From: Patescibacteria group bacterium
GTDB lineage: Bacteria; Patescibacteriota; Patescibacteriia; 2-01-FULL-39-33
Assembly: GCA_041649575.1 (NCBI GenBank)
Contig: JBAZMW010000002.1
Location: 148,487-212,486 of the forward strand
Direction of reading: 5' to 3'
Length of the DNA stretch: 64,000 bases
Every line of letters begins with the position of its first letter. Positions within the stretch are counted from its first letter, which is position 1. The position numbers were made by a program, and so were the translations under genes. The notes beneath the pieces are model-generated. The model worked only from the letters and a program-made list of their open reading frames with translations. It searched no databases and had not been told where the DNA came from. Below, piece after piece: positions 2,182 through 34,968 of this stretch.

Positions 2182-2256
2182 ACTTTAATTGTCAGCTAAA
2201 GTTAGCGTTTCAGACGCTAATCTAAGATAGTCTAAAACTCAGGAAGGTGACAAGGT

Positions 2257-3804: not shown

Positions 3805-3816
3805 ATTTTCTAAAAA

Positions 3817-11941: not shown

Positions 11942-12018
11942 GTTTTTGGTATAATATAGAGTTCTATAAAATAAAACATTTATTTGGAAAGGCAGTGTTG
12001 CCTTTTTGTTTTCATTTC

Positions 12019-12174
12019 TGCGAGCGCATGAAAATTTAGCAACAAAACAGGCGGAGTTCGAGCGTAAATTTTAATTTGTTTGAGCAAAAGCCACCAGTAA
12101 ACTGGTGGCTTTTGCGAGTTATTAAAATTAGCGAGAACAACCCTGTTTTGTCTAAATTTTCATTTAGCTCGCGC
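12019..12174. repeat. Long imperfect palindrome, copy L1 (~156 nt, MITE-like or structured RNA)
   Basis: Arms GCGAGCGCATGAAAATTTAGCAACAAAACAGG... and ...CCTGTTTTGTCTAAATTTTCATTTAGCTCGCGC, centred on CCACCAGTAAACTGGTGG (12091-12108). Confidence 0.75.
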
Positions 12175-12185
12175 TTTTTTCTTTT

Positions 12186-12226
12186 GTGTCAGCTTTTCTT
12201 TTTACTAAAAAAAGAAAAGCTGACAC
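12186..12226. repeat. A/T-rich perfect hairpin H1 (GTGTCAGCTTTTCTTTTT...AAAAAGAAAAGCTGACAC)
   Basis: Perfect inverted repeat. Related left arms occur at 22159 and 24649. Confidence 0.7.
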
Positions 12227-12252
12227 AAAAAAAGAGTATATTTAATAAACTA

Positions 12253-12281
12253 TTGACAGAATTCTAATTATATGCTATTAT
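12253..12281 (+). promoter_or_regulatory. Promoter: TTGACA, 17-nt spacer, TATTAT
   Basis: TTGACA at 12253-12258 and TATTAT at 12276-12281, upstream of the GC-rich two-gene unit. Confidence 0.55.
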
Positions 12282-12357
12282 AATAAGAAGTACCTTTTAC
12301 CACTGTGAGCTGGCCGACTTAGTCGGAAAACTAAGAACGAAGAAGGAGAAACACATC

Positions 12358-12714
12358 ATGAGTCAAAAGACTGGCATACTATTGCTGCTGTTGCGGCCGA
12401 AAGACGGAGCGGCCGTCTTCTTGGACTGGACCCAGAACGCCCTCTTCATGCTGGAGAGCGCGAGTGCCACAGGCGTTTCGCCGTTGGCCGAGAGGGAAGA
12501 TCTGGCCAAGTGTATGAAGGGTTACGAGCTGTGTCCCGCGCTTGGCTACGGCCTATGCGCCAGGTGCCCTATGTCAGTCACCGGCGGTGCTCTCTGTAAT
12601 TTCTGGGCTTCCCAGGGATTCGCCCGCGTGCTCGACGCGCGCACAGAAGAGGAGGCGACCTTTGCCGATCTCGATGCCATGCGCGCCGCGCTCACCGCTT
12701 CCATTACCGGCTGA
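12358..12714 (+). CDS. GC-rich orphan protein, 118 aa
   Basis: AAGGAG SD 9 nt upstream of the ATG. Contains CARCP and other Cys residues. No recognised domain. Confidence 0.55.
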   Translation: MSQKTGILLLLLRPKDGAAVFLDWTQNALFMLESASATGVSPLAEREDLAKCMKGYELCPALGYGLCARCPMSVTGGALCNFWASQGFARVLDARTEEEATFADLDAMRAALTASITG

Positions 12715-12729
12715 AAGGAGAACACGGAC

Positions 12730-13107
12730 ATGCCAACGGTACAAGTGGCCGCGATAAATCTGCCGGCTGGCGCCTTCCTTTTCTTCTATCCGGAACACGC
12801 CACCCCCCAGTACCTTCTGTACAAGAATATCTGGCTGGGACAGACGATGTTCAGGCAGAAGCTAAACGAAGACGAACTTCAGGCTCTCCTCGCCGCCGGT
12901 CGAAATGGGTGGGAGGAAGTGGGCGAGGTGACTCGACGAGAGTTGCAGGCCGCGGATCTCTCTGGACTGGTTCGCAATCTCAAGACCAGGTGCGTCTGGC
13001 CCGAGAATGCGACCGCGTCAATCGCTGTCAGTCCTGACTGCAGCGGACGATGCTCGGAGTGTCGCGGGTGCTATAGCGACATGGAGCCAGTCACAGTAGA
13101 GCGATAG
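12730..13107 (+). CDS. GC-rich orphan protein, 125 aa, with a C-terminal Cys cluster
   Basis: AAGGAG SD 9 nt upstream. C-terminal CSGRCSECRGC (C-x3-C-x2-C-x2-C). Confidence 0.55.
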   Translation: MPTVQVAAINLPAGAFLFFYPEHATPQYLLYKNIWLGQTMFRQKLNEDELQALLAAGRNGWEEVGEVTRRELQAADLSGLVRNLKTRCVWPENATASIAVSPDCSGRCSECRGCYSDMEPVTVER

Positions 13108-13129
13108 TCACACTGTGGTTCGTATCCGG

Positions 13130-13170
13130 GGGTTGTTGGTCGAGAAAGACCGGCAACCCTCTTTTTTTTT
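13130..13170 (+). terminator. Intrinsic terminator
   Basis: GGGTTGTTGGTC / GACCGGCAACCC stem followed by a T-run (about 10 T). Confidence 0.8.
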
Positions 13171-13238
13171 ATTTAAATTTTAGAATCCCATTATTTCCTT
13201 GACATTTTTCGGTTCTTGCTTTAAAATACTTAAAGTTG

Positions 13239-13266
13239 TTGACAAATTAATCAAAATTGCTATAAT
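13239..13266 (+). promoter_or_regulatory. infA operon promoter: TTGACA, 16-nt spacer, TATAAT
   Basis: TTGACA at 13239-13244 and TATAAT at 13261-13266. Confidence 0.55.
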
Positions 13267-13378
13267 TAGCTTGAGCTTAAAAGTTTCAAAATTTAGCTTA
13301 ATTAGTGTAAAATTCTAGGCCGACTAGAAGCTTATAAGTTGCCAAGAATTTTATTTTTATCTAAAATATTTAAGCTGC

Positions 13379-13618
13379 ATGAATCAAAAACAAGGCAATA
13401 CCCCCGATTCCAAAGATTTTTTGGAAGTCGATGGAGAAGTACTGGAGCTTTTGCCGGCCGCCAGTTTCCGGGTGAAGCTGGAAAGCGGCCCGGAAATTTT
13501 GGCCCACTTGTCAGGCAAAATGAGGATGTTTAACATCCGCATCCTGCCCGGCGATCGCGTCAAGATCCAGATGACTCCTTACGATTTGACTCGGGGCAGG
13601 ATAATCTACCGTTATTAA
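13379..13618 (+). CDS. infA: Translation initiation factor IF-1
   Basis: S1-like core: [58 protein letters not shown]. Confidence 0.93.
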
Positions 13619-13623
13619 AAATT

Positions 13624-13737
13624 ATGAAAGTCAGATCATCGGTAAAAAAAATCTGCAAAGATTGCAAGCTTGTCCGTCGCAAAAAACGGCTGGTTGTCAT
13701 TTGCAAAAACCCTAAACATAAACAAAGACAGGGCTAG
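13624..13737 (+). CDS. rpmJ: 50S ribosomal protein L36 (37 aa, absent from the ORF track)
   Basis: My translation is [37 protein letters not shown]. It sits in the canonical infA-rpmJ-rpsM position. Confidence 0.92.
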
Positions 13738-13743
13738 TGGCAG

Positions 13744-13843
13744 ATGGCTTGTGGCATATAGCAAATAGTTAAAACTAAAAAACTATAAGCTATATACTAT
13801 ACGCTATAAGCCATTTGCTATACGCTAATAAATATTATGGCTT
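13744..13843 (+). promoter_or_regulatory. Candidate structured leader of rpsM with a start-codon-masking element
   Basis: ATGGCTT occurs at 13744-13750 and again at the rpsM start (13837-13843). AAGCCAT at 13808-13814 is complementary to both. GGCATATAGCAAAT (13753-13766) is partly complementary to ATTTGCTATA (13813-13822). Confidence 0.3.
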
Positions 13844-14229
13844 TAAGAATTGCCGGTACAACTCTGCCAAACGACAAGCGCATCGAAGTGGGCTTGACTT
13901 ATATTTTCGGCATCGGCCGCAATTTGGCCGTCAAGATTTTGGCCGAAGCCAAAGTCAGTCCCGATATTCGCGTCAAGAACTTGAGCGAAGAGCAAGCCAA
14001 TAAGCTAAGAGTTATTGTCGAAAAGAATTATCGGGTTGAAGGTGAATTAAAAAGAGAAATTTTGGGTAATATCAAAAGATTAAAGGAAATCAAGGCTTAT
14101 CGCGGCACCCGTCATGCCAGAGGCTTGCCGGCTCGCGGCCAACGCACCAAGACCAACAATCGCACCGTGCGGGGCAATGTCAGAAAAACCATGGGTTCGG
14201 GCAAGAAACCGTCCGCTCAGAAGACTTAA
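13837..14229 (+). CDS. rpsM: 30S ribosomal protein S13
   Basis: [27 protein letters not shown]... and the conserved operon position. Confidence 0.93.
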
Positions 14230-14241
14230 TTTATTATCAAC

Positions 14242-14712
14242 ATGACCGAAGAAACAAATCCAATCGAAGAAGCTGCTAAGAGCGCTCCTGTGGCCGAAAA
14301 AGAAAGCGCGGCTGCTGGCAAAAAAGTTATCAAGCCCAGAGCCAAAAAAACCGTCGCTTATCGCCAGGTGAGCTCCGGCCGTGTTTATGTTAAGGCCAGC
14401 TACAACAATACCATGGTGACTTTTACCGATCAGAACGGCAATGTCTTGTCCTGGTCTTCGGCGGGCCAATGCGGCTTTAAGGGTCCCAAAAAAGCTACGC
14501 CCTATGCCGCCACCATTATCGTCAAAAATTGTTTTGAAAAGGTCAAAAATTACGGTTTGAAAGAAGTGGCAGTCTTTGTTAAAGGCATTGGCGGCGGCCG
14601 GGAAGCGGCCATTCGCGCCTTAAATGCCAACGGTTTGATTGTCACCGGCATTAAGGATGTCACTCCCATTCCTCACAACGGTTGCCGTCCCAAGAAACCG
14701 CGGCGCGTCTAA
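14242..14712 (+). CDS. rpsK: 30S ribosomal protein S11 with an N-terminal extension
   Basis: VYVKASYNNTMVTFTDQNGN and PHNGCRPKKPRRV. Confidence 0.93.
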   Translation: MTEETNPIEEAAKSAPVAEKESAAAGKKVIKPRAKKTVAYRQVSSGRVYVKASYNNTMVTFTDQNGNVLSWSSAGQCGFKGPKKATPYAATIIVKNCFEKVKNYGLKEVAVFVKGIGGGREAAIRALNANGLIVTGIKDVTPIPHNGCRPKKPRRV

Positions 14713-14727
14713 TCCTATAAATTATTT

Positions 14728-15330
14728 ATGAAAAAGAGTACTCACAAAGCCTGCCGTCGTTATGGCGTTAAACTGTGCCAATCGGATAAGTGCCCGGTCA
14801 TCAGACGCAATTATCCGCCGGGCATGCATGGTCCTAAAGGCGCCAGAAAACTCACCGAATACGGCCGGCAACTGGCCGAGAAGCAAAAAGCCAAGATTGT
14901 TTATGGTTTAAGAGAGAAACAGTTTGCCAATTATTTTGACGCCGCTTTTAAGAAAGTCGGCAACACCGCCGAACTGTTGTTTAAGCTTTTGGAAAGCCGT
15001 CTGGACAACGTGGTCTATCGGTTCGGCTTTGCCAAAACCAGGACTCAAGCCAGGCAACTGGTCAGCCACGGCCACGTTGAGGTTAACGGCAAGAAAGTCG
15101 ACATCCCTTCTTTTCAAACCAAAATCGGCGATGCCATTTCCCTTAGAGAAAAAACTTTGAAAACCAACGCTTTTGCCAATTTAGCCGAAGCGCTCAAAGA
15201 CAAAGAAGTCATGTCCTGGCTTAGTTTAGACGCCAAGGAACTAAAGGGTAAAATAGTCGATCTGCCTAAATTAGGCGAAGTGGAAATGAATATCGACTGG
15301 CGCATGATTGTCGAATTTTATTCCAAATAA
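14728..15330 (+). CDS. rpsD: 30S ribosomal protein S4
   Basis: YGRQLAEKQKAK, LESRLDNVVYR, and the S4 domain QLVSHGHVEVNGKKV. Confidence 0.93.
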   Translation: MKKSTHKACRRYGVKLCQSDKCPVIRRNYPPGMHGPKGARKLTEYGRQLAEKQKAKIVYGLREKQFANYFDAAFKKVGNTAELLFKLLESRLDNVVYRFGFAKTRTQARQLVSHGHVEVNGKKVDIPSFQTKIGDAISLREKTLKTNAFANLAEALKDKEVMSWLSLDAKELKGKIVDLPKLGEVEMNIDWRMIVEFYSK

Positions 15331-15388
15331 AAAGTTATTTTAAAAATATTAAAATATAAATTAATTAGCTTAAGGAGGAATAAAAATT

Positions 15389-16261
15389 ATGAAATATATT
15401 TCCTTGCCAAAGAAATTCATTGTTGAGGAAGAGGCCAGAGGCACCAAGGCGAAGATCATCATCGAGCCCTGTTATCCCGGCTACGGCTTGACTTTGGGCA
15501 ATGCCTTAAGACGGGTGATGCTGTCTTCTCTGCCGGGCGGCGCTGTCACCGCTGTTAAAATCAAGGGAGTGGGTCATGAGTTTAGCGCCATAAAAAATGT
15601 TTCCGAAGACGTTGTCGATATTATTTTGAACTTAAAGCAGTTGCGCATCAAGGTTTATGCCGATGAACCGGTGACTTTGCAGCTCAAAGCCAGGGGCGAA
15701 AAAAAGGTTACTGGCGCCGATATCGAGCCTTCTTCCGACGCCGAGGTTATTAACAAAGATTGTTTTATTGCCAGCCTCAATGATAAAGACGGCGAGCTGG
15801 AGATGGAGCTGACTGTTGCCAAGGGAGTCGGCTATGTGCCTACCGAAGAACAAGTAAAAAGCAAGGGCAAAGGCGAGATTGGTTTGATTTTGGTCGATTC
15901 TATTTTTACGCCGGTTCTTAATGTTCGTCTGAACATCGAAGCCACTCGTGTTGGTCAGCGCGTCGATTATGACAAGATTGTTTTGGAAATAGAAACAGAC
16001 GGGACCATTTCCCCAGAAGAAGCGTTGCAGAAAGCCGCCGAAATCCTGGCCAATCAGTTCAGCTGGCTGATGGAAGGCGGCAGGCAGGAATTGGTCGAAG
16101 TTGATCTGGAAGCGCCGGTGGCTTTGCCGGAAAACAAAGAAGCGGAGTTATTAAAGGAAGTCGCTTCGTCAGACGGTTTGGACGAAAGCCAAGTAGCGGC
16201 CGAGACAGAAGTTGTCGAAGACAAACCCAAAAAACGAGGTCGTCCCAAGAAAGTTGAATAA
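15389..16261 (+). CDS. rpoA: RNA polymerase alpha subunit: N-terminal domain only, acidic tail ending in an AT-hook
   Basis: GYGLTLGNALRRVMLSSLPG. No helix-hairpin-helix CTD is recognisable. The tail ends KPKKRGRPKKVE. AAGGAGG SD upstream. Confidence 0.9.
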   Translation: MKYISLPKKFIVEEEARGTKAKIIIEPCYPGYGLTLGNALRRVMLSSLPGGAVTAVKIKGVGHEFSAIKNVSEDVVDIILNLKQLRIKVYADEPVTLQLKARGEKKVTGADIEPSSDAEVINKDCFIASLNDKDGELEMELTVAKGVGYVPTEEQVKSKGKGEIGLILVDSIFTPVLNVRLNIEATRVGQRVDYDKIVLEIETDGTISPEEALQKAAEILANQFSWLMEGGRQELVEVDLEAPVALPENKEAELLKEVASSDGLDESQVAAETEVVEDKPKKRGRPKKVE

Positions 16262-16270
16262 AGCGTTTTT

Positions 16271-16621
16271 ATGAAACATCAGAAAAGAGGAAAAACTTTA
16301 GGCAGAACCAGATCGGTGCGTGAAGCGTTGATGAGAAATCTAACGACCAGTTTTATAATTTATGAAAAAATAAAAACCACCAAAGCCAAAGCCAAACTAT
16401 TGAGGCCTAAAGTGGAAAAGCTGATTACTTTGTCCAAGCATGACACCCTGACCAATCGGCGACAGGCCTTAAGGGTTTTATATTTTGATAAAGCGGTCAA
16501 AAAATTGTTTGAGGTTTTGGGTCCTCGGTATCAAGAAAGAAATAGCGGCTATACCAGGATTGTCAAGTTGCCGCCGCGCAAAGGCGATGCCGCTGAAATG
16601 GCAATTTTGGAATTAGTTTAA
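16271..16621 (+). CDS. rplQ: 50S ribosomal protein L17
   Basis: MKHQKRGKTLGRTRSVREALMRNL and YTRIVKLPPRKGD. Confidence 0.92.
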   Translation: MKHQKRGKTLGRTRSVREALMRNLTTSFIIYEKIKTTKAKAKLLRPKVEKLITLSKHDTLTNRRQALRVLYFDKAVKKLFEVLGPRYQERNSGYTRIVKLPPRKGDAAEMAILELV

Positions 16622-16628
16622 TTCAAGT

Positions 16629-16985
16629 ATGAAAAAAATAGAAAGAAAAATTCATTCACTAGATGCCAGCGGCCGGCCGCTGGGCCGATTGGCCAGTCAG
16701 GTGGCGATGATTTTGATGGGCAAAAATCGGCCCGATTATCAGCCCCAATTGGATAACGGCGATATAGTAGAAGTTGTTAATTGCGATAAAATCAAGCTGA
16801 CCGGTAAAAAGCTGGAGCAGAAGGAATATATCTGGCATTCTCATCATCCGGGCGGCTTAAAACGCAAGAAAGTCAAATTGGTTTTGGCGGCAGATCCGGG
16901 AGAAGTCTTGCGCCGGGCGGTAGTCGGCATGTTGCCCAAAAACCGGTTGCAACGGCCGCGGCTTAAACGCCTGAAAATAAAATAA
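16629..16985 (+). CDS. rplM: 50S ribosomal protein L13 (short, 118 aa)
   Basis: DASGRPLGRLASQVAMILMGK and GMLPKNRL. Confidence 0.9.
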   Translation: MKKIERKIHSLDASGRPLGRLASQVAMILMGKNRPDYQPQLDNGDIVEVVNCDKIKLTGKKLEQKEYIWHSHHPGGLKRKKVKLVLAADPGEVLRRAVVGMLPKNRLQRPRLKRLKIK

Positions 16986-16992
16986 TTTTATT

Positions 16993-17433
16993 ATGGAGAA
17001 AGAAAAAAAAGAGAAAATAGAAAAAGAAAAGAAGGTGGTTAAGAATAAGTATCTTTATGCCAAAGGCGCCAGAAAAACCTCGGTAGCCCAGGTGCGTTTG
17101 TATAGAAAGGGTAGCGGCAATTTTGAAGTTAATGGCAAAAAGTTTAATGAATATTTTAGAACCGAAAATCTGCAGAGAATTTTTTTGGCCGCTTTGACTG
17201 CCGTCAACCATCTGCAAGATATTGACCTTACTATCAAAACCCAGGGCGGCGGAATCACCTCGCAGTCGCAGGCTTGCCGACATGGCATTGCTCGCGCCTT
17301 GGTTGAACTGGATAAGGAATTGCGGCCGCTCTTAAGAGCCGAAGGCTTTTTGACCCGCGATCCGCGCGTCAAAGAAAGAAAGAAACCGGGCCTGAAGCGC
17401 GCCAGAAAAGCGCCGCAATGGAGCAAACGTTAA
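16993..17433 (+). CDS. rpsI: 30S ribosomal protein S9 with a Lys/Glu-rich N-terminal extension
   Basis: GARKTSVAQVRLY, GGGITSQSQACRHGIARAL and KKPGLKRARKAPQWSKR. Confidence 0.92.
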   Translation: MEKEKKEKIEKEKKVVKNKYLYAKGARKTSVAQVRLYRKGSGNFEVNGKKFNEYFRTENLQRIFLAALTAVNHLQDIDLTIKTQGGGITSQSQACRHGIARALVELDKELRPLLRAEGFLTRDPRVKERKKPGLKRARKAPQWSKR

Positions 17434-17446
17434 GGGAAAATTTATC

Positions 17447-17479
17447 AGCTGGGGCCAAAATTGGCCCCAGCTTTTTTTA
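17447..17479 (+). terminator. Intrinsic terminator
   Basis: AGCTGGGGCCAA / TTGGCCCCAGCT stem followed by T7. Confidence 0.85.
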
Positions 17480-17520
17480 TTATTGTTAATCTGTTAGAAT
17501 TACTTTAGTTTTAAGCAGCT

Positions 17521-20500
17521 ATGCCAGAAAAAGGACTATCTTTAAATGCCGAGCAACAAGCCGCGGTTCTTCATGATCAAGGGCCGCTTTTAATCGTGGC
17601 TGGCGCCGGCACCGGCAAAACCACGGTGATTACCGAAAGAATAGCTTATTTGATAAAAAACAAAAATTGCCGGCCGGAGGAAATTTTGGCCCTAACCTTT
17701 ACCGACAAAGCCGCCGGTGAAATGGAGGAGAGAGTCGATCGTCTTTTGCCTTACGGTTATGTCGATTTATGGATTCACACCTTTCACGCTTTTGCCGAAA
17801 AAGTTTTACACGACCACGGCCTGGAAATTGGTCTGCCCAATGATTTTAAGCTGCTCAGTACCACCGAGCAATGGCTTTTGGTTCGTCAAAATTTGGAAAA
17901 ATTTCCACTGGATTATTACCGGCCGCTGGGCAACCCGGTCAAGTTTATCCATGCCTTGTTAAAACATTTTTCGCGCGCCAAGGACGAGAATATTTCTCCC
18001 GCAGATTATCTAAATTATGTCCAGGAATTAAAGCTTAATGCCGATGGCGCAGAATTTATTAAAACCATCATCGACGAAGAGACCAAAAAACAATTAAGCA
18101 AAAAAGAACTTAAAGAAATTTTGGCCCAGGAAATCGCCAAGCAGACAGAGGTGGCCGAAGCCTATCACAGCTATCAGCAGTTGCTTTTGGCCAACAGCGC
18201 GCTGGATTTTGGCGATCTAATCAATTACGCCCTGAAACTCTTTACCACCAGAAAGAATATTCTTTTGAAATACCGCAACCAGTTCAAATATATTTTGGTT
18301 GATGAATTTCAAGACACCAATTACGCTCAATATGAATTATTGAAGCTTTTGGTCGGGCCTCAAAGCAACCTGACGGTGGTCGGCGATGACGACCAGTCGA
18401 TTTATAAGTTTCGGGGCGCTTCCATTTCCAATATTTTACAGTTCAAAGACGATTATCCGCAGGCCAAAGAAATTTTTCTCAACCAGAATTACCGCAGTTG
18501 TCAGAATATTTTAGATTTGGCTTATCGTTTTATCAAGCAGAACGATCCTTATCGTTTGGAAGTCAAGCTGGCTGGCGCCAGACAGCTTTCCAAAAAGCTC
18601 TCGGCTCAAAAGGACGGCCAAGGGGAAATCATTCATCTCCATGGCCGCCAGTTGGCCGACGAAGTGAAACTGGTGGTGGAAAAAATAATCAAGCTTTATA
18701 ACAACTCTCAAGCCGTCTCCTGGTCGGACTTCGCCGTTCTGGTTCGAGCCAATTCCAGCGCCGATGATTTTTGCTACGCTCTGGAAATGGCTGGCGTTCC
18801 TTTTAATTTTGTCGCTTCCAAGGGCCTCTATTCCAAGGCGGTGGTTTTGGATCTTTTGGCATACCTGAAACTATTGGACAATTATCACGAGGGGCCGGCT
18901 ATGTATCGCTTTTTGACGTTGCCGGTTTGGCAGATAAGTCAGAGCGATATCGTCAACTTGAATTATTGGGCCAAGAGGAAAGGCCAGTCGCTTTATGAGA
19001 CTCTCAAGCAGTCGGCGGCTCTAAACAATTTTACCCCAGATTTCCAGAGGCAGATTGGTCAGCTTTTGGCGGTGCTGGAGAAGCACGCCCAGCTGGTCAG
19101 AGAAAACAAAAAAACCACCGAAATTGTCCAAGCTTTTCTGGGCGACACCGGATATCTGAAGCAGCTTTCGGCCACGGATTCTCTGGCCAGTCGCGAACAG
19201 CTCGGCTATCTCAATCAGTTCTATAAAAAAATCCAAAATTTTGAACAGACTAGCGCCCACAACTCGGTTAAAGATTTTTTGTCTCTGGTGGAGCTGGAGC
19301 TGGAAGCTGGCGAAGAGGGGAGTTTGGAGGTCAACCTGGAGGAAGAAGGCCCCGATACCGTGAAAATCATGACCATTCATGCCGCCAAAGGCTTGGAATT
19401 CAAATATGTTTTTATCTCTAATTTGGTTGACAAGCGTCTGCCGACAATCGAGAGAAAAGACCCGATAGAATTGCCGGACAAGCTGGTCAAAGAAATTATT
19501 CCCGAGGGCGATATTCATTTACAGGAAGAGAGACGGCTGATGTATGTGGCCATGACTCGCGCCAAAGACGGTCTGTACCTGACTTCGGCCGCTGATTATG
19601 GCGGCGTCAGAAAAAAGAAACTCTCTCGTTTTCTGACGGAGCTTGCCGATTTGGGTTTGCCGCTGGCGGCCGAAATCAAAGCCGAGAGAGTCGGCGATTT
19701 GTCGGCCCGCCGACCTGCTCTAAGCGATAAGACCAGAGAAAAGGCCCCCGGCTTTTTACCCAGTAAATTCTCTTTTACCCAACTCAAGGCTTTTGAGAGC
19801 TGCCCTTATCAATATCGCTTCGCCCATGTCTTGAAGATCCCAGTCAAAGGCAAGGCCCAATTTTCTTTTGGCAAAAGCATGCACGGAACTTTGCAGAAAT
19901 TTTTTCTGTTGCTTAAGACCAAGCAAAACAAACGCCAGGGTGATTTGTTCGGCGCTAAAGATGGCAGTTCTGTCGAGGCCAGCGAAGCCGAGCTCTTAAA
20001 GATTTATCAAGAGACTTTTATCGACGATTGGTATGCCAGCAGAAAGGAGCGTGACGAATATTTTGCCAAAGGCCAGAGGGCGCTTAAAGGATTTTTTGCC
20101 CTGCACCAGCTCAACTGGCCAAGGGTGGCGGCGCTGGAACAGTCTTTTAATTTTAAGATTGCCGACGGCGGCGTTTATACTCTTTACGGTTTTATGGATC
20201 GTCTCGACGAGGTCGAGGGCGGCCTAAGAATCGTCGATTATAAAACCGGCCAGGCCAAAACCAAACTCTCCCCGGAAGACAAGGAACAGCTTTTGATTTA
20301 TCAGCTGGCGGCCGAAAAGGTGCTGGCCGAAAAAGTCAAAGAGTTGGTTTTCTATTATCTCGATGAAAACAAAGCGGTTTCTTTTTTGGGCGACGATAAA
20401 GAGCTGGCCGCTCTAAGGAAAAAAATCATGGCCATCATAGATGAGATCAAAAAAGGGGAATTCCCGCCCAAGCCGGGAGAAATCTGCAAGTATTGTGATT

Positions 20501-20532
20501 TTAATGGTATTTGCGAATATCGTTATAAATAA
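17521..20532 (+). CDS. UvrD/PcrA-type superfamily-1 helicase fused to a C-terminal PD-(D/E)XK (Cas4/AddB-like) nuclease with a Cys cluster
   Basis: AGAGTGKTT, VDEFQDTN and TIHAAKGLEF helicase motifs. C-terminal part has SCPYQYRF, VDYKTG and CKYCDFNGIC. Confidence 0.85.
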   Translation: MPEKGLSLNAEQQAAVLHDQGPLLIVAGAGTGKTTVITERIAYLIKNKNCRPEEILALTFTDKAAGEMEERVDRLLPYGYVDLWIHTFHAFAEKVLHDHGLEIGLPNDFKLLSTTEQWLLVRQNLEKFPLDYYRPLGNPVKFIHALLKHFSRAKDENISPADYLNYVQELKLNADGAEFIKTIIDEETKKQLSKKELKEILAQEIAKQTEVAEAYHSYQQLLLANSALDFGDLINYALKLFTTRKNILLKYRNQFKYILVDEFQDTNYAQYELLKLLVGPQSNLTVVGDDDQSIYKFRGASISNILQFKDDYPQAKEIFLNQNYRSCQNILDLAYRFIKQNDPYRLEVKLAGARQLSKKLSAQKDGQGEIIHLHGRQLADEVKLVVEKIIKLYNNSQAVSWSDFAVLVRANSSADDFCYALEMAGVPFNFVASKGLYSKAVVLDLLAYLKLLDNYHEGPAMYRFLTLPVWQISQSDIVNLNYWAKRKGQSLYETLKQSAALNNFTPDFQRQIGQLLAVLEKHAQLVRENKKTTEIVQAFLGDTGYLKQLSATDSLASREQLGYLNQFYKKIQNFEQTSAHNSVKDFLSLVELELEAGEEGSLEVNLEEEGPDTVKIMTIHAAKGLEFKYVFISNLVDKRLPTIERKDPIELPDKLVKEIIPEGDIHLQEERRLMYVAMTRAKDGLYLTSAADYGGVRKKKLSRFLTELADLGLPLAAEIKAERVGDLSARRPALSDKTREKAPGFLPSKFSFTQLKAFESCPYQYRFAHVLKIPVKGKAQFSFGKSMHGTLQKFFLLLKTKQNKRQGDLFGAKDGSSVEASEAELLKIYQETFIDDWYASRKERDEYFAKGQRALKGFFALHQLNWPRVAALEQSFNFKIADGGVYTLYGFMDRLDEVEGGLRIVDYKTGQAKTKLSPEDKEQLLIYQLAAEKVLAEKVKELVFYYLDENKAVSFLGDDKELAALRKKIMAIIDEIKKGEFPPKPGEICKYCDFNGICEYRYK

Positions 20533-20709
20533 CGAGTGTTTTTAGATAATTTTTTTGAATAATATTAAAACTTTTGTTATTGTGGATAATTTTTGGTATT
20601 TTCATTTGACATACAATAAAAAAAATTTTATATTTTAAAATTATAATGATTATTATAATTTTATTTTGTTTAAATTTAGCTAAATTATTGGTATTTTAAA
20701 AAAATTACT

Positions 20710-20738
20710 ATTGACAAATATTTATCTATATGATATAA
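20710..20738 (+). promoter_or_regulatory. Promoter: TTGACA, 17-nt spacer, TATAAT
   Basis: TTGACA at 20710-20715 and TATAAT at 20733-20738, at the downstream end of a very A+T-rich ~230-bp spacer. Confidence 0.55.
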
Positions 20739-20744
20739 TTATAA

Positions 20745-21314
20745 TTGTAAAAAGATAAATAAGATATTTTTCGAATCTCCTTGCTCATGGCGTTACGCCA
20801 GTTATCTGGATGTATCGCCATTGACAAGGGTCTTTGAAAGGCGTTAGAACTATAATTTAGAGGAGGATGGCGCTTTATACGCTGCCAGTCCTGGCTTCAA
20901 GATAACTTCTTGAGGCGAGGCGGCCGGCTAAGCGCCCTGGGAAATCAGGTCACAAAATATAATTTTGCGGGCCGTACGATTCTCCCGCCAATCACCCTCT
21001 AATAATTGTTCTAAAAAATCAGGCGGGGATCTTGTCCCTGCCGCGATGCGAAGGAAGCCAGTGCCCGTAAATCTGCGCCTGTTTGGCGCAGATCAGGGCA
21101 GTCAGAAAAAGTTCGGCAAGTAGCAAAACAAACATCTTTACCGTGGCCGGCAACTTTTTCTCAAGTTTTATTCGTATCGTGGCAGAGGTAAGCGGCCACT
21201 GCCCTCTCCTTGGTGGCAAGCCGGTTTGGTTTGTATGACCGACCGGCTTGCCTCTCTACTTTAGTCAACAAGATTTGTTGACTGGGGCAGGGAAGTCAAC
21301 GAGGAGGGCGAGTC
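20745..21314 (+). other. GC-rich, hairpin-dense ~570-nt untranslated region (long leader or independent RNA)
   Basis: I found no SD-preceded ORF on the plus strand. Perfect hairpins at 21071-21093 (9 bp), 21215-21252 (11 bp) and 21264-21282 (8 bp). Confidence 0.4.
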
Positions 21315-21503
21315 ATGATTGTACAATGTTGTAAGTGCCTTCGCGTACGCGAAGGTACACAAGGTAGTGAGTGGAGCCAGGAGCCCGGAGAACGTTTGAC
21401 TGAAACAGACGTCTCCCATGGGTACTGCCCCGCTTGCACCGAGAAGGCGTTGGCAGAAGTACGCCAACACCATGGACAGAAGGAGGATACGCGGACCGAA
21501 TAG
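21315..21503 (+). CDS. Small zinc-ribbon-like protein, 62 aa (CxxC ... SHGYCPAC)
   Basis: GGAGGG SD 6 nt upstream. Sequence begins MIVQCCKCLRVREG...W...SHGYCPACTEKAL. Confidence 0.6.
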   Translation: MIVQCCKCLRVREGTQGSEWSQEPGERLTETDVSHGYCPACTEKALAEVRQHHGQKEDTRTE

Positions 21504-21520
21504 GACCGCGTTTTAATTTT
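21489..21520 (+). terminator. Intrinsic terminator overlapping the stop codon
   Basis: ACGCGG / CCGCGT stem followed by TTTTAATTTT. Confidence 0.5.
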
Positions 21521-21776
21521 CTCAAAAATTATCAATAAATTTTTAAAGCACTCTTGACAACATCTTGTTTTTGATTTTTTTTCTGTGTTATAATTTTTTT
21601 GCAGGGAAGGATTATCACTCGTCATATTACCAGTTACACTTTAAACTCTCTCCCCTTAGTGTGGCCTGGCAATATCCAGAGTGCCTTCTCTAAATCCCGC
21701 CTTTACGGCGGGATTTATATTTTTTATTTTGTTAGTGTTTTATTTTGTGTTATAATAAGCCCATAAAAGGAGCGTT

Positions 21777-22157
21777 ATGACCATTAAGCAATTGCTTTAT
21801 ACCATTATTTTTGCCACTTTGGTTTGCTGGCTGGTGTGGTTTTTTGTTTTGTTTCAGATAGACCCGACCAGTAGCGGCCTCTTTGGTTTTTTTCTGTTTT
21901 ATGCCAGTTTGTTTTTTGGACTAGCAGGCGCTTTTTTTCTGCTTAGCTTTGCCTGGCGCAAGGTTTTCGGCAAGCTGAATTTGGAATATAAGATTGTCGG
22001 CACTTCTTTCCGCCAATCGATTTTTTTGGCGCTACTGATAGTCGGCTTGCTGTTTTTACAAAGCAAGAATTTTTTGAGCTGGTGGAATGTTATTTTACTG
22101 GTGGTGGTGGTTAGTATTTTGGAGTATTTTTTCTTGACTACCAAGAAGACAATTTAG
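21777..22157 (+). CDS. Small integral membrane protein (about 4 TM)
   Basis: Four hydrophobic segments and A+T-rich host-like composition. Confidence 0.7.
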   Translation: MTIKQLLYTIIFATLVCWLVWFFVLFQIDPTSSGLFGFFLFYASLFFGLAGAFFLLSFAWRKVFGKLNLEYKIVGTSFRQSIFLALLIVGLLFLQSKNFLSWWNVILLVVVVSILEYFFLTTKKTI

Positions 22158-22158
22158 G

Positions 22159-22224
22159 CTGTTGTCACCTTTCTTTTTTTAGAAAATTATTTTTAATGCC
22201 GCTTCTTTTCTAAAAAGAAGCGGC
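22159..22224. repeat. H-type element remnant plus a terminator-like hairpin
   Basis: GTTGTCACCTTTCTTTTTTTAG matches the left arm of the element at 24649. It is followed by GCCGCTTCTTTT / AAAAGAAGCGGC. Confidence 0.55.
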
Positions 22225-22410
22225 AGAAGAAAATCGCAGCTATTGTAAAATCCAGACAAAATTAGGTGAGTTTTCGCTAAGGCCATTAACTCCCCGCTCA
22301 GGCGCTAGCGCGCTGAGCGGGTCAAACATAATGGCCTTTGGCCTGCGGCCACCGCTCAAACTCCCAGCCAATTTTGTTCCTGGATTTTCCAGCGCTGCCT
22401 TTTTTGATCT
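22225..22410. repeat. Long imperfect palindrome, copy L2
   Basis: AAAATCCAGACAAAATTAGG... pairs with ...CCAATTTTGTTCCTGGATTTT. Centre is CCCCGCTCAGGCGCTAGCGCGCTGAGCGGG. TTTTCATAGGCTCGC follows at 22414-22428. Confidence 0.7.
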
Positions 22411-22454
22411 GCTTTTCATAGGCTCGCCGTAATGATTTAAATAGGACAATAACG

Positions 22455-22484
22455 TTGACTAAAGCAGCGCAAAAAGGTTATAAT
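22455..22484 (+). promoter_or_regulatory. pheS promoter: TTGACT, 18-nt spacer, TATAAT
   Basis: The -10 ends at 22484 and the ATG is at 22494, so the mRNA is leaderless or nearly so. The track's TTG start at 22455 is the -35 hexamer itself. Confidence 0.6.
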
Positions 22485-22493
22485 ATTTTTATT

Positions 22494-23543
22494 ATGAAAG
22501 AAAAGCTCAAGCAGTTAAAAATCGAATTTTTTGAGGCGATCAAGAAAATAAAAACCGCCTCTGATTTGGAAAATTTAGAAAATAAATTTTTGAGCCGTAA
22601 AAACGGCTTGCTCACCAATCTAATGAAAGGCCTGAAAGAGGTGGCGCGTGAAGAGGTGGCGGAGATCGGCCAATTAGCTAATGAGGTAAAAATCCAAATC
22701 ACCGATGAATTAGAGGGCCTCAAAAGCAAGCTTTCCGACCAGAGAGTCGGTGATTTTGATTTTTCTCTGCCGGGCGAGATGCCGCCCATTGGTCATTTGC
22801 ATTTGGTCACCGAGGCCATTCGCGAAATCGCTTCGATTTTTGAGGGTGTCGGCTTCCAGCGGGTCAGCTATCCGGAGGTAGAGTGGGATTATTATGCTTT
22901 TGAGGCCCTAAACATGCCCTCTGATCATCCAGCCCGCGATGAGTGGGAAACGTTTTTTATCGACCGTGAAGCTGTCAGCAAAAAGTATGGTAAGAGGATT
23001 TTGACGCCCCATACCTCTAACGCCCAGGTGCGGGAAATGGAAAAAGGCAGGTTGCCAATCCGCATGATGAATATCTCCAAAACCTATCGCCGGCAGATAG
23101 ACATTTCTCATACCCCCATGTTTCATCAGTTCGAAGGCTTGGTGATTGATAAGGATATCAATATCACTCATCTCAAAGGCACGATCGATTACTTTGTTAA
23201 GAAATTTTTTGGAGCCGACAGGACAATTCGCCTAAGGCCGCATCATTTTCAATTCACCGAGCCGAGTTTTGAAGTGGATATTTCTTGCGGCTTGTGCCAC
23301 GGTACCGGCAAGTTGGTGGATGGCTCGGCGTGTCGTATGTGCAAAGAGGGTTGGCTGGAGCTGGCTGGCGCTGGCATGGTGCATCCCAATGTCTTGAAAT
23401 TTGGCGGTATCGACTCGGGCAAATACAGCGGTTTTGCTTTTGGCTGGGGCGTGGAGCGGTGTTATACCATGAAAGCAGGATTAAACATCGATGATATTCG
23501 ACTGTTGTATAAGAATGATTTGCGGTTCAATACGCAGTTTTAA
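22494..23543 (+). CDS. pheS: Phenylalanine--tRNA ligase alpha subunit
   Basis: HPARDEWETFF, FRLRPHHFQFTEPS and GFAFGWGVER. Confidence 0.92.
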   Translation: MKEKLKQLKIEFFEAIKKIKTASDLENLENKFLSRKNGLLTNLMKGLKEVAREEVAEIGQLANEVKIQITDELEGLKSKLSDQRVGDFDFSLPGEMPPIGHLHLVTEAIREIASIFEGVGFQRVSYPEVEWDYYAFEALNMPSDHPARDEWETFFIDREAVSKKYGKRILTPHTSNAQVREMEKGRLPIRMMNISKTYRRQIDISHTPMFHQFEGLVIDKDINITHLKGTIDYFVKKFFGADRTIRLRPHHFQFTEPSFEVDISCGLCHGTGKLVDGSACRMCKEGWLELAGAGMVHPNVLKFGGIDSGKYSGFAFGWGVERCYTMKAGLNIDDIRLLYKNDLRFNTQF

Positions 23544-23569
23544 TAAATTTATAAATAAGGCTGGTTTTC

Positions 23570-24649
23570 ATGAATTATATTAAACAACCAATTGGCTACA
23601 TTAAAGCAGAGGGTTCTGGTCCTGATATAGTGGGTTCGGCTATTCGTATTTTAAAAGAAGTCGAAAAAAAGATGGATGTAAGATTTAAACTAATAGAGTA
23701 TAAAGGCCAAGCGCCAGCACTGAAATATACCACTAAATCATTTACTGAACTAAAAAATTTTTATAAAAGAATTCGAGAAAGAAAGGGATGTATTATTCGT
23801 GGAGGAATTTACGCTAGACAGGTTTATAGATTGCGACACGATTTTAGGCTGACATATAAACCAATCTTAATCAACCCCATACCGGAATTGTTTGAAAATT
23901 CTCCTTTTAAGGCAGCCTTTGCCAAAAAAATAAACTTATTAATAGCCAGAGAAAACGCGCAAGGGCTATTGGTTTCCAAAGAGATATTAAAGAAAACAAA
24001 AACTAACGAGATATTTGAGGGAAAATTTTTTTACGACAAAAATCTTTGCCGAAAGTTTATAGAAATGTGCTATCAGGCCGCTAGTAAAAGGAAGAAAAAA
24101 ATCATGTTTTTAATTAAGGGTGATGTTTGGAGTCGTCAGAGTTTTGGTGGTATGTGGTTTAGTTTATGGAAGGAGGTTGGAAAAAAATATCCAGAAGTGG
24201 AATTTGATTGGGAACACGACGACACTTGGCTTGGCTATTTTATGAATCATCCAGAAAAATATGATATGGTAGTAGCTTTGGGCATTAGTGGCGATTTAAT
24301 TACCGATCCGATTGCCACTTTAGCTTATGGCACCAGAGCAATTACTCCTAGCGCTAACATTGCTCCAGACGGTTTTATGACTGTTCAAACCATTCATGGC
24401 GCCGGAACCGGTATACCAAAAGGTAAGGCCAATCCCATCGCCATGATTAGAGGCATTGGTCTATTGATGGAATATTTTTTTGAAATGCCAGAGATGAAAA
24501 ATCTTATCGATCTATCTATAAGAAAGGTACTGGCCAGAGGATATAGAACAATAGATATTTATCTTAGTAATAATCCCAAACACAAATTGATCGGCTGTAA
24601 AGAAATGACCAGCTTAATAGTAGAAGAGATGCAAAAACTAACCAGTTAA
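23570..24649 (+). CDS. Divergent isocitrate/isopropylmalate dehydrogenase-family (beta-decarboxylating dehydrogenase-like) protein, low GC
   Basis: ARENAQGL and GDLITDPIATLAYGTRAITPSANI....QTIHGAGTGIPKGKANPIAMI resemble the Iso_dh family pattern. Visibly more A+T-rich than pheS and pheT. Confidence 0.55.
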   Translation: MNYIKQPIGYIKAEGSGPDIVGSAIRILKEVEKKMDVRFKLIEYKGQAPALKYTTKSFTELKNFYKRIRERKGCIIRGGIYARQVYRLRHDFRLTYKPILINPIPELFENSPFKAAFAKKINLLIARENAQGLLVSKEILKKTKTNEIFEGKFFYDKNLCRKFIEMCYQAASKRKKKIMFLIKGDVWSRQSFGGMWFSLWKEVGKKYPEVEFDWEHDDTWLGYFMNHPEKYDMVVALGISGDLITDPIATLAYGTRAITPSANIAPDGFMTVQTIHGAGTGIPKGKANPIAMIRGIGLLMEYFFEMPEMKNLIDLSIRKVLARGYRTIDIYLSNNPKHKLIGCKEMTSLIVEEMQKLTS

Positions 24650-24690
24650 GTTGTCACTTTTCTTTTTTTAGTAAAAAGAAAAGCTGACGC
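24649..24690. repeat. A/T-rich hairpin H3, same family as 12186-12226
   Basis: GTTGTCACTTTTCTTTTTTTAGTAAAAAGAAAAGCTGACGC. Confidence 0.65.
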
Positions 24691-24701
24691 AAAAGAAAAA
24701 A

Positions 24702-24842
24702 GCGCGATCTAATGAAAATTTGGCGCTTTAAGTCAAAATCCTAACAAAATTTTTAAACTCGCTTCGCCTACGGCTCGCTCAAACAGTAAAAATTTAGTAA
24801 CGGATTTTGCCTTACGCTTATTCCAAATTTTCATAGGCTCGC
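24702..24842. repeat. Long imperfect palindrome, copy L3
   Basis: GCGCGATCTAATGAAAATTTGG... pairs with ...CCAAATTTTCATAGGCTCGC. Confidence 0.7.
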
Positions 24843-24853
24843 ATTGTAAAAAA

Positions 24854-25345
24854 ATGAGAAGAATTAATAAAAATACATTGAAATGGATAATAGGAACGAT
24901 AATCGTACCTATTATTATAGCTGTAATAATGGTTAGTAATCAAGTACAGCAAAGCATAACTAATAGTGACAATTCTATTATGGCTGGTATAAATATTGCT
25001 AAAACCACTGGTGACAATAGTCCAGCCGTGGTTGGTGATAATAATAATTTTGAATACCATGTTAGTACTACAAGCACGCCTCAAAGACATGTTGATCAAA
25101 AGGTTATCGATTATTTAAATAGAGAAATACCCAAAGATGATCAAATAAAAATATTTATTGGGGCTGTTGCTCTTGATTCGGAAGCGTATATTTTTGCACA
25201 AGAAATATTTCATTATTTAACTGGTAAGTATAAAAATGTATATGGCATTGAATCTTTGGTGAATGATAATATGTCCCCAGGAATTCATATACACAAAAAG
25301 TTACAAGAAAAAAATATTTATATTGATATTCAAACTCATGAATAA
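24854..25345 (+). CDS. Hypothetical membrane-anchored protein, very low GC
   Basis: One N-terminal TM helix. No recognised motif. This looks like the most A+T-rich coding region in the window. Confidence 0.55.
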   Translation: MRRINKNTLKWIIGTIIVPIIIAVIMVSNQVQQSITNSDNSIMAGINIAKTTGDNSPAVVGDNNNFEYHVSTTSTPQRHVDQKVIDYLNREIPKDDQIKIFIGAVALDSEAYIFAQEIFHYLTGKYKNVYGIESLVNDNMSPGIHIHKKLQEKNIYIDIQTHE

Positions 25346-34002: not shown

Positions 34003-34968
34003 ATGAAGAAATCAAATCTGCCTATTCTCAGTCAGTTTTCGGACTTTCTGGCCTATTGCGAGGTAGAAAAAGGTCTTAGCCCCATTTCTACCAGAAATTA
34101 CCACAATTTTTTGAGAATGTTCGAAGGTTGGCTAAAAATCAAACATTTAACGCAGCTCAAGCCGCATGAGCTCACTCCAGAGCATGTCTGGGACTACCGG
34201 CTTTATCTTTCCCGTCGGCAAGACCGCTCTGGTCGCTATATCAAAAAAACCACTCAAAATTATTATTTAATCGCCCTTAGGAACCTTTTGAACTACTTCG
34301 CCGATAAAGATATTATCTCTTTGCCTTCAGAAAAAGTTAAATTACCAAAATTAACCGAAAAAGACAAAGCGATAAAGTTTCTAAAGTTTGATCAGATAGA
34401 AAAGTTATTACAGGTGCCGGATGTCACCACTCTTGAAGGCCTAAGGGACAGAACGATTCTCGAAATTCTCTTCTCTACTGGTATGCGGGTTTCGGAGTTA
34501 ACGTCGCTTAATATCAAACAGTTTGATCGCCTAGCTTTACTAAAAAATAATTTTTCTGATCAAGAGTTAAGCATCGCTGGTAAAGGTGGTAGAACAAGAA
34601 CGGTTTATTTTTCTCATCGAGCTTTGGGTTGGCTGGCTAGATACTTAAAAAACAGAAACGACCTCTATCCCCCGCTTTTTATTAACTATCGTCCCCATAA
34701 TGACAGAGATGACGAGCACCGTTTAACGCCTCGTTCGGTTGAAAGATTGGTAAAAAGACACACCGTGATGGCCGGGTTGCCTGTTGATGCCACGCCGCAC
34801 ACCCTGCGTCATAGCTATGCCACGGATTTATTGGATCAGGGAGCAGATTTGCGCAGTGTCCAGGAGCTTTTGGGGCATAAAAATATTGTTACCACTCAAA
34901 TTTATACTCACGTCACCAATCAAAAGCTTCGCTCCATTCATAAAAAATTTCATAGTGGCAATCATTGA
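34003..34968 (+). CDS. xerC: Tyrosine recombinase XerC/XerD family
   Basis: TPHTLRHSYATDLLDQGADLRSVQELLGHKNIVTTQIYTHV. Confidence 0.88.
   Translation: MKKSNLPILSQFSDFLAYCEVEKGLSPISTRNYHNFLRMFEGWLKIKHLTQLKPHELTPEHVWDYRLYLSRRQDRSGRYIKKTTQNYYLIALRNLLNYFADKDIISLPSEKVKLPKLTEKDKAIKFLKFDQIEKLLQVPDVTTLEGLRDRTILEILFSTGMRVSELTSLNIKQFDRLALLKNNFSDQELSIAGKGGRTRTVYFSHRALGWLARYLKNRNDLYPPLFINYRPHNDRDDEHRLTPRSVERLVKRHTVMAGLPVDATPHTLRHSYATDLLDQGADLRSVQELLGHKNIVTTQIYTHVTNQKLRSIHKKFHSGNH

Follow-up and report, generated by a model that had tools for sequence, protein, structure and literature searches.

A composite hairpin repeat with a mirror-repeat linker in Patescibacteria around Candidatus Buchananbacteria

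Patescibacteria (the candidate phyla radiation, CPR) have tiny, tightly packed genomes that are thought to be poor in repetitive DNA. What, then, are the three long imperfect palindromes that lie in a 64-kb stretch (the window) of a Patescibacteria metagenome-assembled genome (MAG), the 235-kb contig k141_2894300 of European Nucleotide Archive (ENA) entry ERZ27247363, whose closest named relatives are Candidatus Buchananbacteria? We find that L1, L2 and L3, as these palindromes are called, belong to a single family of composite repeats, the L family, and that the fold of its large hairpin is conserved by compensatory change more than its sequence is. The explanation that we prefer, with a probability of about 0.55, is that the family is a non-autonomous, structure-dependent mobile repeat like REPINs, ERIC and miniature inverted-repeat transposable elements (MITEs), one that settles at the 3' ends of genes and is sometimes reused as a terminator.

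An earlier note on the window had placed three related palindromes here, and they are found where it put them. Each was folded together with its small adjoining hairpin, giving free energies of -109.8 kcal/mol for L1, -112.5 for L2 and -58.3 for L3, far beyond dinucleotide shuffles (z = -14.2, -7.7 and -3.8, respectively). That they form one family, as the note proposed, becomes clear when orientation is corrected. L1 is a copy on the + strand that aligns with L2 and L3 on the - strand, and positions 12155-12219, comprising the 3' base and small hairpin of L1, match 24657-24721 of L3 over 65 nt at 91% identity. The arm motifs that the note quoted are present in the window. Searches by pattern, profile and covariance model find only these three copies within it, a density of about 3 per 70 kb.

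The repeat unit is non-coding and 200-290 bp long. It comprises a large, branched, imperfect hairpin of 140-240 nt, a pyrimidine linker of 7-12 nt, and a small hairpin whose arms consist of pyrimidines on the 5' side and purines on the 3' side. We define the forward strand as that reading GCGAGC-nn-ATGAAAA ... TGTTTGAGC. On this strand the 5' half of the large hairpin begins with GCGAGC-nn-ATGAAAA(A)TTT and passes through variable paired segments and (C/T)TGTTTGAGC to a variable apical stem-loop. The 3' half runs from GCGAGTT through the complementary segments to AAATTTTCAT-nnn-GCTCGC, and is followed by the linker G(A/C)(C/T)TTTT(C)TT. The 5' GCGAGC-nn-ATGAAAA(A)TTT and its complement at the 3' side of the large hairpin constitute terminal inverted repeats in all full copies. 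The small hairpin is built from a GC clamp, a T/C run, a loop of 3-5 nt, an A/G run and the clamp again. The earlier note had described A/T-rich hairpins as neighbors of the palindromes. They are present, but they are not independent: because pyrimidine/purine hairpins occur in the window solely beside L elements, the small hairpin is one component of the unit.

There are at least four subtypes. L3-like copies form subtype A and L1-like copies subtype B. Subtype C carries a side hairpin and often an apical insert of ~100 nt, and L2 is C-like; subtype D has a GCGAAGC apex. GTTA-type motifs are confined to an internal loop of subtype A; the internal motifs TGTTTGAGC/GCGAGTT and the G.A loops are kept across subtypes. 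A coding element was considered and rejected. In several copies, reading from the conserved ATG on either strand runs into a stop 3-5 codons later, and indels separate the subtypes. The open reading frames (ORFs) at 12076-12267, 22240-22449 and 24818-25099, which the earlier note called spurious, are indeed in the ORF list and cross the non-coding repeats; L elements should be masked in annotation.

Fold, linker and strand

Pairing was assessed in an alignment of 21 distinct copies, six of them outside the seed, that was guided by the covariance model; alignment by MAFFT across subtypes had misaligned the middle of the hairpin. Standard pairs occupy 95.8% of the cells, compared with 74.7% for shuffled sequences and at most 48% when the partners are slid. 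Changes on both sides are found in 26 of 38 pairs. Covariation scores 0.54, and this drops to 0.15 on shuffling and to 0.09 or less on sliding; the values come from an alignment fitted to the structure, and kinship among the sequences inflates the counts. The earlier note had asked for arms more alike than expected at random, and they do covary strongly, far above both controls. G.U pairs are found in only 13 of 788 cells (1.6% of paired cells). Their number is nearly equal on the two strands (35 and 33), and is thus uninformative for the choice of strand. The rarity of G.U pairs, and their equality across strands, suggests that pairing is strictly Watson-Crick, as it is in DNA, or that both strands are constrained.

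The strands are distinguished by other features. In symmetric internal loops of the forward strand 33 of 60 oppositions are G.A or A.G, and on the reverse strand 15 of 65, where T.C and C.T dominate. The forward strand has purine triloops (GAA, GCA, GGA, AGA and AAA) closed by C-G pairs, and several of these are exact GCGAAGC mini-hairpins. GCGAAGC-type triloops characterize stable hairpins of DNA rather than of RNA. With RNA and DNA parameters alike, 16 of 19 copies fold more stably on the forward strand, which also gains ~100 bits over the reverse in the covariance model. We read the conserved UGAGC/GCGAG and GUUA/GUUA loops as candidate tandem sheared G.A motifs. A kink-turn was rejected, since in UGAGC/GCGAG the tandem G.A abuts G-C pairs and the three-nucleotide bulge is missing on the required strand.

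The linker is a mirror copy of the pyrimidine arm of the small hairpin, and is hence complementary base for base to the purine arm in parallel orientation. In L1 and L3 the linker is U6CU4 and the purine arm A7GA4. Corresponding pairs are U4CU5 with A4GA5 in the L098 group, U5CU4 with A5GA4 in L104, U4CU3 with A4GA3 in L057a, U4CU2 with A4GA2 in subtype C and L093b, U4CU2C with A4GA2G in L2, and U6CU5 with A6GA5 in L123. The number of residues between the linker C and the clamp equals that between the purine-arm G and the clamp in all 7 informative variants, and for these the antiparallel (Watson-Crick) register is never as good a fit. The parallel match is at least equal to the antiparallel in 10 of 13 variants, being longer in 8, and in most it spans the whole purine arm.

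We know of no copying mechanism that makes mirror repeats. Selection for a T.A-T/C+.G-C triplex, either H-DNA or a triple helix within a single strand, would be the simplest explanation of the linker. H-DNA mirror repeats and the U.A-U triple helices of RNA (ENE/MALAT1-type, SAM-II and preQ1-II) likewise combine a spacer flanked by homopyrimidine mirror repeats with a purine run complementary to them, and place a third-strand C opposite G. ENE-type clamps differ from the L arrangement, where the order is Hoogsteen strand, clamp, Watson-Crick pyrimidine strand, loop and purine strand, with a GC clamp in addition; the L triplex is predicted from sequence. To our knowledge, no bacterial repeat family with such a triplex module has been described.

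Copies beyond the window and their turnover

Further copies of the family, whose existence the earlier note had made the test of its proposal, are found in other Patescibacteria contigs. There are ~20, in Candidatus Buchananbacteria-like genomes and in groundwater metagenomes. A two-arm pattern drawn from the window gave 88 stretches in GTDB genomes, nearly all of which are chance matches, as expected; two are true copies, in a Candidatus Buchananbacteria MAG (L057) and a 'Patescibacteria group' MAG (L013). A 5'-half pattern gave 29 stretches from metagenomes, with 17 true copies. Diverged and truncated copies, and copies in pairs, came to light in searches by profile and covariance model. The covariance model recovers six non-seed copies at E ~1e-17, and its E-values span 1e-17 to 1e-28, non-seed copies included. 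No true match was found in phage, plasmid and viral collections. A scan of the window with Rfam 15 at gathering scores gave nothing but one tRNA-Gln, Rfam scans by E-value of L1 and three loci with subtype A or C copies gave only generic miRNA-hairpin noise, and a tRNA/tmRNA search gave nothing. No matching repeat family was found in the literature searched. The L family is apparently undescribed so far, and as far as sampled it is confined to Patescibacteria around Candidatus Buchananbacteria.

The surroundings of the palindromes had appeared inserted to the earlier note, and comparison with syntenic relatives bears this out. The relatives L121, L122 and L124 have pheS genes 85% identical to that of the window, and L123 one of 83%. 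In the first three, alaS is separated from infA by 216 nt, with neither L1 nor the small genes ORF118 and ORF125 beside it, and ORF126 is followed after 16 nt by pheS, with no L2. They also lack ORF163 and the gene of the isocitrate/isopropylmalate dehydrogenase family (Iso_dh) that flank L3. L1 and L2 are absent from L123 too. Directly after pheS, L121, L122 and L124 have a small hairpin and an internally deleted mini-copy oriented like L3, and L123 has a rearranged copy beside three accessory genes (ORF146, a NUDIX gene and ORF195). L121 has a truncated copy after rpsI that is lacking in the window; its apical hairpin and TTTT stand where the window has an ordinary rpsI terminator.

Copies are found nested, chimeric, truncated or internally deleted. 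L1 is itself chimeric, having a subtype B interior with the 3' base, linker and small hairpin that match L3. Seven subtype C copies from one groundwater metagenome have arms that are 91-99% identical within unrelated flanks. The flanks of the ~20 copies share no target-site duplication. The apices of subtype C contain another small palindrome (GGGATTCCTCCAC...GGTCGGAATGAC) that also occurs alone elsewhere. The subtype C copies L109, L113, L117 and L118 have in common a TTCC-rich tail, 30-60 nt 5' of the forward 5' end, which corresponds to (A)GGAA repeats on the opposite strand and lies between the large hairpin and the terminator of the neighboring gene. These repeats resemble Shine-Dalgarno sequences or GGA protein-binding motifs. 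A subtype A copy found in L098, L101, L108 and L119 (Ga0233421-Ga0233423) has two left and two right flanks in all four combinations, which indicates inversion or recombination across copies, or mis-assembly. A short-read contig ends within the L3 small hairpin. These repeats also affect where metagenome assemblies of Patescibacteria break and are wrongly joined, and the family could serve as a strain-typing marker in Buchananbacteria-like Patescibacteria.

The copies are located in intergenic spacers. Of 19 informative sites, 16 have the small-hairpin end turned toward a gene's 3' end, and the stop codon is often 1-35 nt away. Convergent spacers satisfy this rule automatically, and tandem spacers divide 7 to 3; the orientation bias is suggestive, not proven. 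Such a bias is expected if the forward orientation, with its GC stem and U-tract, is polar and is tolerated in operons only where a promoter follows, as for L1. All three adjacent pairs of copies are head-to-head, with their small hairpins outward. In every copy the sequence (A/C)(C/T)TTTT(C)TT comes after the large hairpin's base stem on the forward strand. The small hairpin is preceded by T-rich and followed by A-rich sequence on both strands, and a scan for consensus terminators calls neither hairpin. That the small hairpin is the host gene's own terminator was rejected because the same clamp recurs at unrelated loci; that it is the general terminator type of the genome was rejected because it is found with L elements only. 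A sigma-70-like promoter is present at the forward 5' end in just 3 of 19 copies, and a stand-alone RNA gene with its own promoter was rejected on this ground. One of these, L057 690-836, has TTGTAA-16-TATAAT 9 nt upstream.

Known repeats and rival explanations

We suggest that an L element would multiply as non-autonomous mobile DNA, as REPINs, ERIC or MITEs do, and that it would be recognized by its shape as a folded single strand. Mini-hairpins of GCGAAGC type, the scarcity of G.U pairs and the T.A-T/C+.G-C triplex layout would make single-stranded DNA the more likely form. The enzyme would be supplied in trans by a gene outside the window. Insertions would persist mainly in 3' spacers, where stable hairpins with a U-tract could be reused as terminators or insulators, and at some sites such reuse by the host is likely; in L121 the apical hairpin of the truncated copy would now terminate rpsI. 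Such a structured repeat, widespread in one CPR lineage, marks spacers of gene turnover and remodels 3' ends and terminators; it is directly relevant to the evolution of these genomes.

REP, BIME and REPIN sequences, which are mobilized by the IS200-like HUH transposase RAYT, resemble the L family in being extragenic, multi-copy and non-coding, with a long imperfect hairpin. They too are presumed to act as folded single-stranded DNA, lie mostly at gene 3' ends and in convergent spacers, can stabilize or terminate transcripts, and receive insertions of other elements. However, REP units are 20-40 nt long and REPINs ~100 nt (two inverted REPs), whereas an L element is one continuous branched hairpin of 140-240 nt, with conserved G.A loops and a second, triplex-type hairpin, and there is no sequence similarity. 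No Y1_Tnp (RAYT) domain is found among the Pfam-annotated genes of the stretches covered, from the contig of the window and from the relatives. ERIC (IRU) sequences of Enterobacteria and Vibrios are likewise intergenic imperfect palindromes (~127 bp or more) in either orientation, conserved across genera, with length-variable insertions at fixed internal sites and no known transposase. Unlike L elements they belong to another phylum, have no attached pyrimidine/purine hairpin and no reported mirror repeat; the sequences are not similar. The MITEs Correia (Neisseria), RUP (Streptococcus) and Nezha (cyanobacteria) are also non-autonomous and have terminal inverted repeats, which in L elements are GCGAGCnnATGAAAATTT with its complement. 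Polymorphism of presence and absence, division into subtypes and an influence on the transcription of neighbors are further points in common. In contrast to MITEs, no target-site duplication or parent insertion sequence (IS) is found for L elements, compensatory change keeps their whole length paired and not the termini alone, and they are asymmetric, with linker and small hairpin on one side only. An autonomous IS with L termini was not found in the window, in ~85 kb of the contig, or in phage, plasmid and viral collections. The best-supported reading is that L elements are non-autonomous and structure-dependent, and that they proliferate, recombine and decay in the spacers between genes. They are closest in kind to REPINs, ERIC and MITEs, and are set apart by their composite architecture and by single-strand signatures on one strand. 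This architecture makes them a testable candidate for a new structure-specific mobilization or binding system.

Rickettsia palindromic elements (RPE) offer a parallel in that palindromic repeats proliferate in a reduced genome. They are closer in setting to a second repeat family of the window, which lies inside ORFs, while the L family is strictly intergenic and far more structured. This second family is a palindrome of ~68 nt, GTCATTGCGAGGGAGCG..GGCAATCC, with copies at 25969-26036 and 38899-38967 that are 94% identical and in inverted orientation. Both are in coding genes, pheT (25390-27858) and a WecG-like ORF (38422-39291). The pheT copy coincides with a variable segment slightly longer than in L121, and in this it recalls in-frame elements of the RPE kind. 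Subtype C apices have related GTCATTCCGACC...GGAGGAATCCC hairpins nested in them, and such hairpins occur alone in L123 and L057.

Several observations weigh against a mobile repeat. In ~85 kb of the contig there is no transposase, HUH/RAYT protein or other candidate, and the sole recombinase is XerC/XerD-like. Filled and empty sites have diverged too far for a target-site duplication or an exact boundary to be defined. The near-identical subtype C copies of one metagenome may come from more than one genome. MITEs do not usually conserve internal motifs across subtypes as L elements do, and a function in RNA or in protein binding could lie behind this. Occupation of the post-pheS site in three genomes, over 83-85% pheS identity, fits functional retention equally as well as decay. 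Lastly, with the GC clamp interposed, just 0-2 nucleotides are left free between the linker and the U/A stem, so that the clamp and the full triplex may exclude each other and would perhaps be alternatives.

We entertain tentatively a more specific proposal, in which the forward strand is a folded single strand of DNA or RNA whose G.A-rich hairpin is coupled to a pyrimidine.purine-pyrimidine triplex kept by selection, so that the family would be a new class of structure-recognized element in CPR with its own enzyme or binding protein. If true, it would be the first bacterial repeat family with a triplex kept by covariation.

Could the elements instead be transcription signals of the host, acting in cis as terminators, antisense insulators or stabilizers of mRNA 3' ends, duplicated only occasionally and selected site by site? 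We think this unlikely. The facing of gene 3' ends at 16 of 19 sites, often with no other terminator between, and the U-tract that always follows the GC-rich base stem on the forward strand are what such a signal would present. The filled post-pheS site in three related genomes, the replacement of the rpsI terminator in L121, and the position of the L2 complex where L123 has an ordinary terminator are also consistent with it. However, the orientation is automatic in convergent spacers, and the tandem split is only 7 to 3. The small hairpin lacks a U-tract on either strand, a simple terminator scan calls no element, and the strand with the optimized fold and U-tract is antisense to the adjacent gene. 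Moreover, near-identical copies in unrelated flanks, nesting and orphan ends would require a mechanism of proliferation anyway. A small RNA gene on the forward strand, giving a stable RNA of ~150-250 nt with its 3' end shielded by the U-rich linker in a U.A-U triple helix, is less probable again. It would account for strong covariation, unpaired motifs conserved across subtypes, the forward bias in fold energy and G.A content, the terminator-like base stem and U-tract, and the covariation of mirror linker and purine arm; and L057 690-836 has a good promoter. Yet promoter-like sites are seen at only three 5' ends, and several 5' ends abut the terminator or start codon of another gene. The scarcity of G.U pairs and their equal number on both strands, the general association of GCGAAGC-type triloops with DNA hairpins, and the free decay of copies by internal deletion, truncation and nesting all speak against an RNA product.

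Recombination sites that fold as single strands and capture accessory genes, in the manner of integron attC, we regard as quite improbable. Like attC sites (for example the Vibrio cholerae repeats), L elements keep fold over sequence, with asymmetric unpaired bases on one strand and an apex of variable length, and the structured strand starts right after the stop codon of the upstream ORF and is antisense to it. Accessory genes that are absent from relatives adjoin L1 (ORF118/ORF125) and L3 (Iso_dh, ORF163), and ORF146, the NUDIX gene and ORF195 adjoin the post-pheS copy of L123. Unlike attC, L elements are longer, lack R and L boxes and form no arrays with IntI. Their base is GCGAGC..ATGAAAA / TTTTCAT..GCTCGC, with no RYYYAAC ... 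GTTRRRY core boxes, and an integron attC identity was rejected on this basis. There is no integron integrase: the sole tyrosine recombinase (34003-34968) scores best as XerD/XerC, far below integron-integrase cut-offs. Integron cassettes were rejected as well, because the copies are dispersed and Iso_dh homologues are found in three other contexts with no L element; in this one tested case there is no linkage of gene and element. No gene came with L2, and the few insertion-tolerant spacers of compact genomes would by themselves co-locate accessory genes and repeats. That the similarity arose by chance from A/T-rich DNA of low complexity and common terminators is hardly credible. The region is A/T-rich, and short motifs like TGTTTGAGC alone are not significant in the window; against this stand fold z-scores to -14, the 65-nt match at 91%, covariance-model E-values of 1e-17 to 1e-28 and covariation far above controls.

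Some other identities were tried. TIGR-Tas arrays of CPR and phage have tandem box C/D-like units beside a Tas (Nop-domain) protein (PMC12045711). L copies are single or in head-to-head pairs with no Tas protein among their neighbors, and this identity was rejected. So were 6S, SRP, retron, bridge-RNA and omega-RNA, there being no single-copy or promoter pattern and no adjacent reverse transcriptase, IS110, IscB or TnpB.

The window copies and their neighborhood

The large hairpin of L1 (subtype B) lies at 12020-12172 on the + strand, scores 121.6 bits with the covariance model, and is a seed member. It reads GCGAGC..ATGAAAATTT .. TGTTTGAGC, the apical stem at 12084-12115, and GCGAGTT .. AAATTTTCAT..GCTCGC. 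The earlier note had placed ATGAAAATTT near the tips of the palindromes, but it lies at the base of the stem, not the apex. The linker GC-TTTTTTCTTTT (12173-12185, + strand) is the mirror copy of the 5' arm of the small hairpin and parallel-complementary to the purine arm. The small 'H' hairpin (12186-12236, + strand) comprises the clamp GTGTCAGC, TTTTCTTTTT, a loop, AAAAAAAGAAAAG, the clamp CTGACAC and an A-run. L1 is situated between the alaS terminator at 11985-12008 and a strong promoter at 12253-12281, which drives ORF118 and ORF125.

L2 lies between ORF126 and the pheS promoter at 22455-22484. The palindrome reported by the earlier note is real, but its boundaries were misplaced; the true stem is 22236-22398 on the - strand. 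This C-like hairpin has the side hairpin GGCCGCAGGCC and scores 107.4 bits. GCGAGC/GCTCGC ends, which had been attributed to all three copies, are found in L1 and L3, but in L2 the stem is closed by GCAGC/GCTGC, as in L093 3441-3595. Its linker, GATTTTCTTCT on the - strand (22225-22235), is parallel-complementary to the purine arm AAAAGAAG. The hairpin that the note assigned to L2 is a one-arm remnant of an older small hairpin of L1/L3 type at ~22161-22190, directly 3' of the ORF126 stop codon. L2's own small hairpin, GCCGCTTCTTTT-CTA-AAAAGAAGCGGC at 22198-22224 on the - strand, had been missed. On the other side, 22410-22427 (- strand) carries an orphan 5' end, GCGAGCCTATGAAAAGCA, of an older L3-type copy, with TTTTCATAGGCTCGC at 22413-22427 as its leftover. 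L2 therefore sits inside the remains of an older L3-type copy, and is both nested and chimeric.

L3 (subtype A; 123 bits) is between the Iso_dh gene and ORF163/pheT. Its large hairpin, at 24704-24842 on the - strand, reads GCGAGCCTATGAAAATTT .. CGTTAC .. CTGTTTGAGC, [GCC-GTA-GGC], GCGAGTTT .. TGTTAG .. AAATTTTCATTAGATCGC. The linker GCTTTTTTCTTTTG is at 24690-24703 and the small hairpin at 24650-24689, both on the - strand; the latter begins 1 nt past the Iso_dh stop codon (24647-24649). A promoter-like TTGATT-18-TATAAT at 24914-24943 of the - strand, within ORF163, is aimed at the forward 5' end of L3 some 70 nt away, and may be chance.

The Iso_dh gene (23570-24649) stands between pheS and pheT. 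At E<=1e-40 it has only ~20 homologues, split between Patescibacteria and MAGs labelled DPANN archaea, a distribution that looks like horizontal transfer. Between alaS and infA there is a GC-rich transcription unit (12253-13161), absent from the relatives, that comprises the promoter beside L1, ORF118, ORF125 and a terminator at 13128-13161; the promoter resembles that of the infA operon of L121. ORFs 118, 125, 126 and 163 have no Pfam, NCBIfam or PHROGs match. A cluster at 1024-5418 encodes a sigma-70 region-4/HARE-HTH protein, a DUF8128 protein and a VirD4/TraD-like coupling ATPase with a CxxC zinc finger, and may be part of a system for DNA transfer or DNA uptake. The alanyl-tRNA synthetase (10124-11941) has just 605 amino acids (585 in a relative), and is without the usual C-terminal region.

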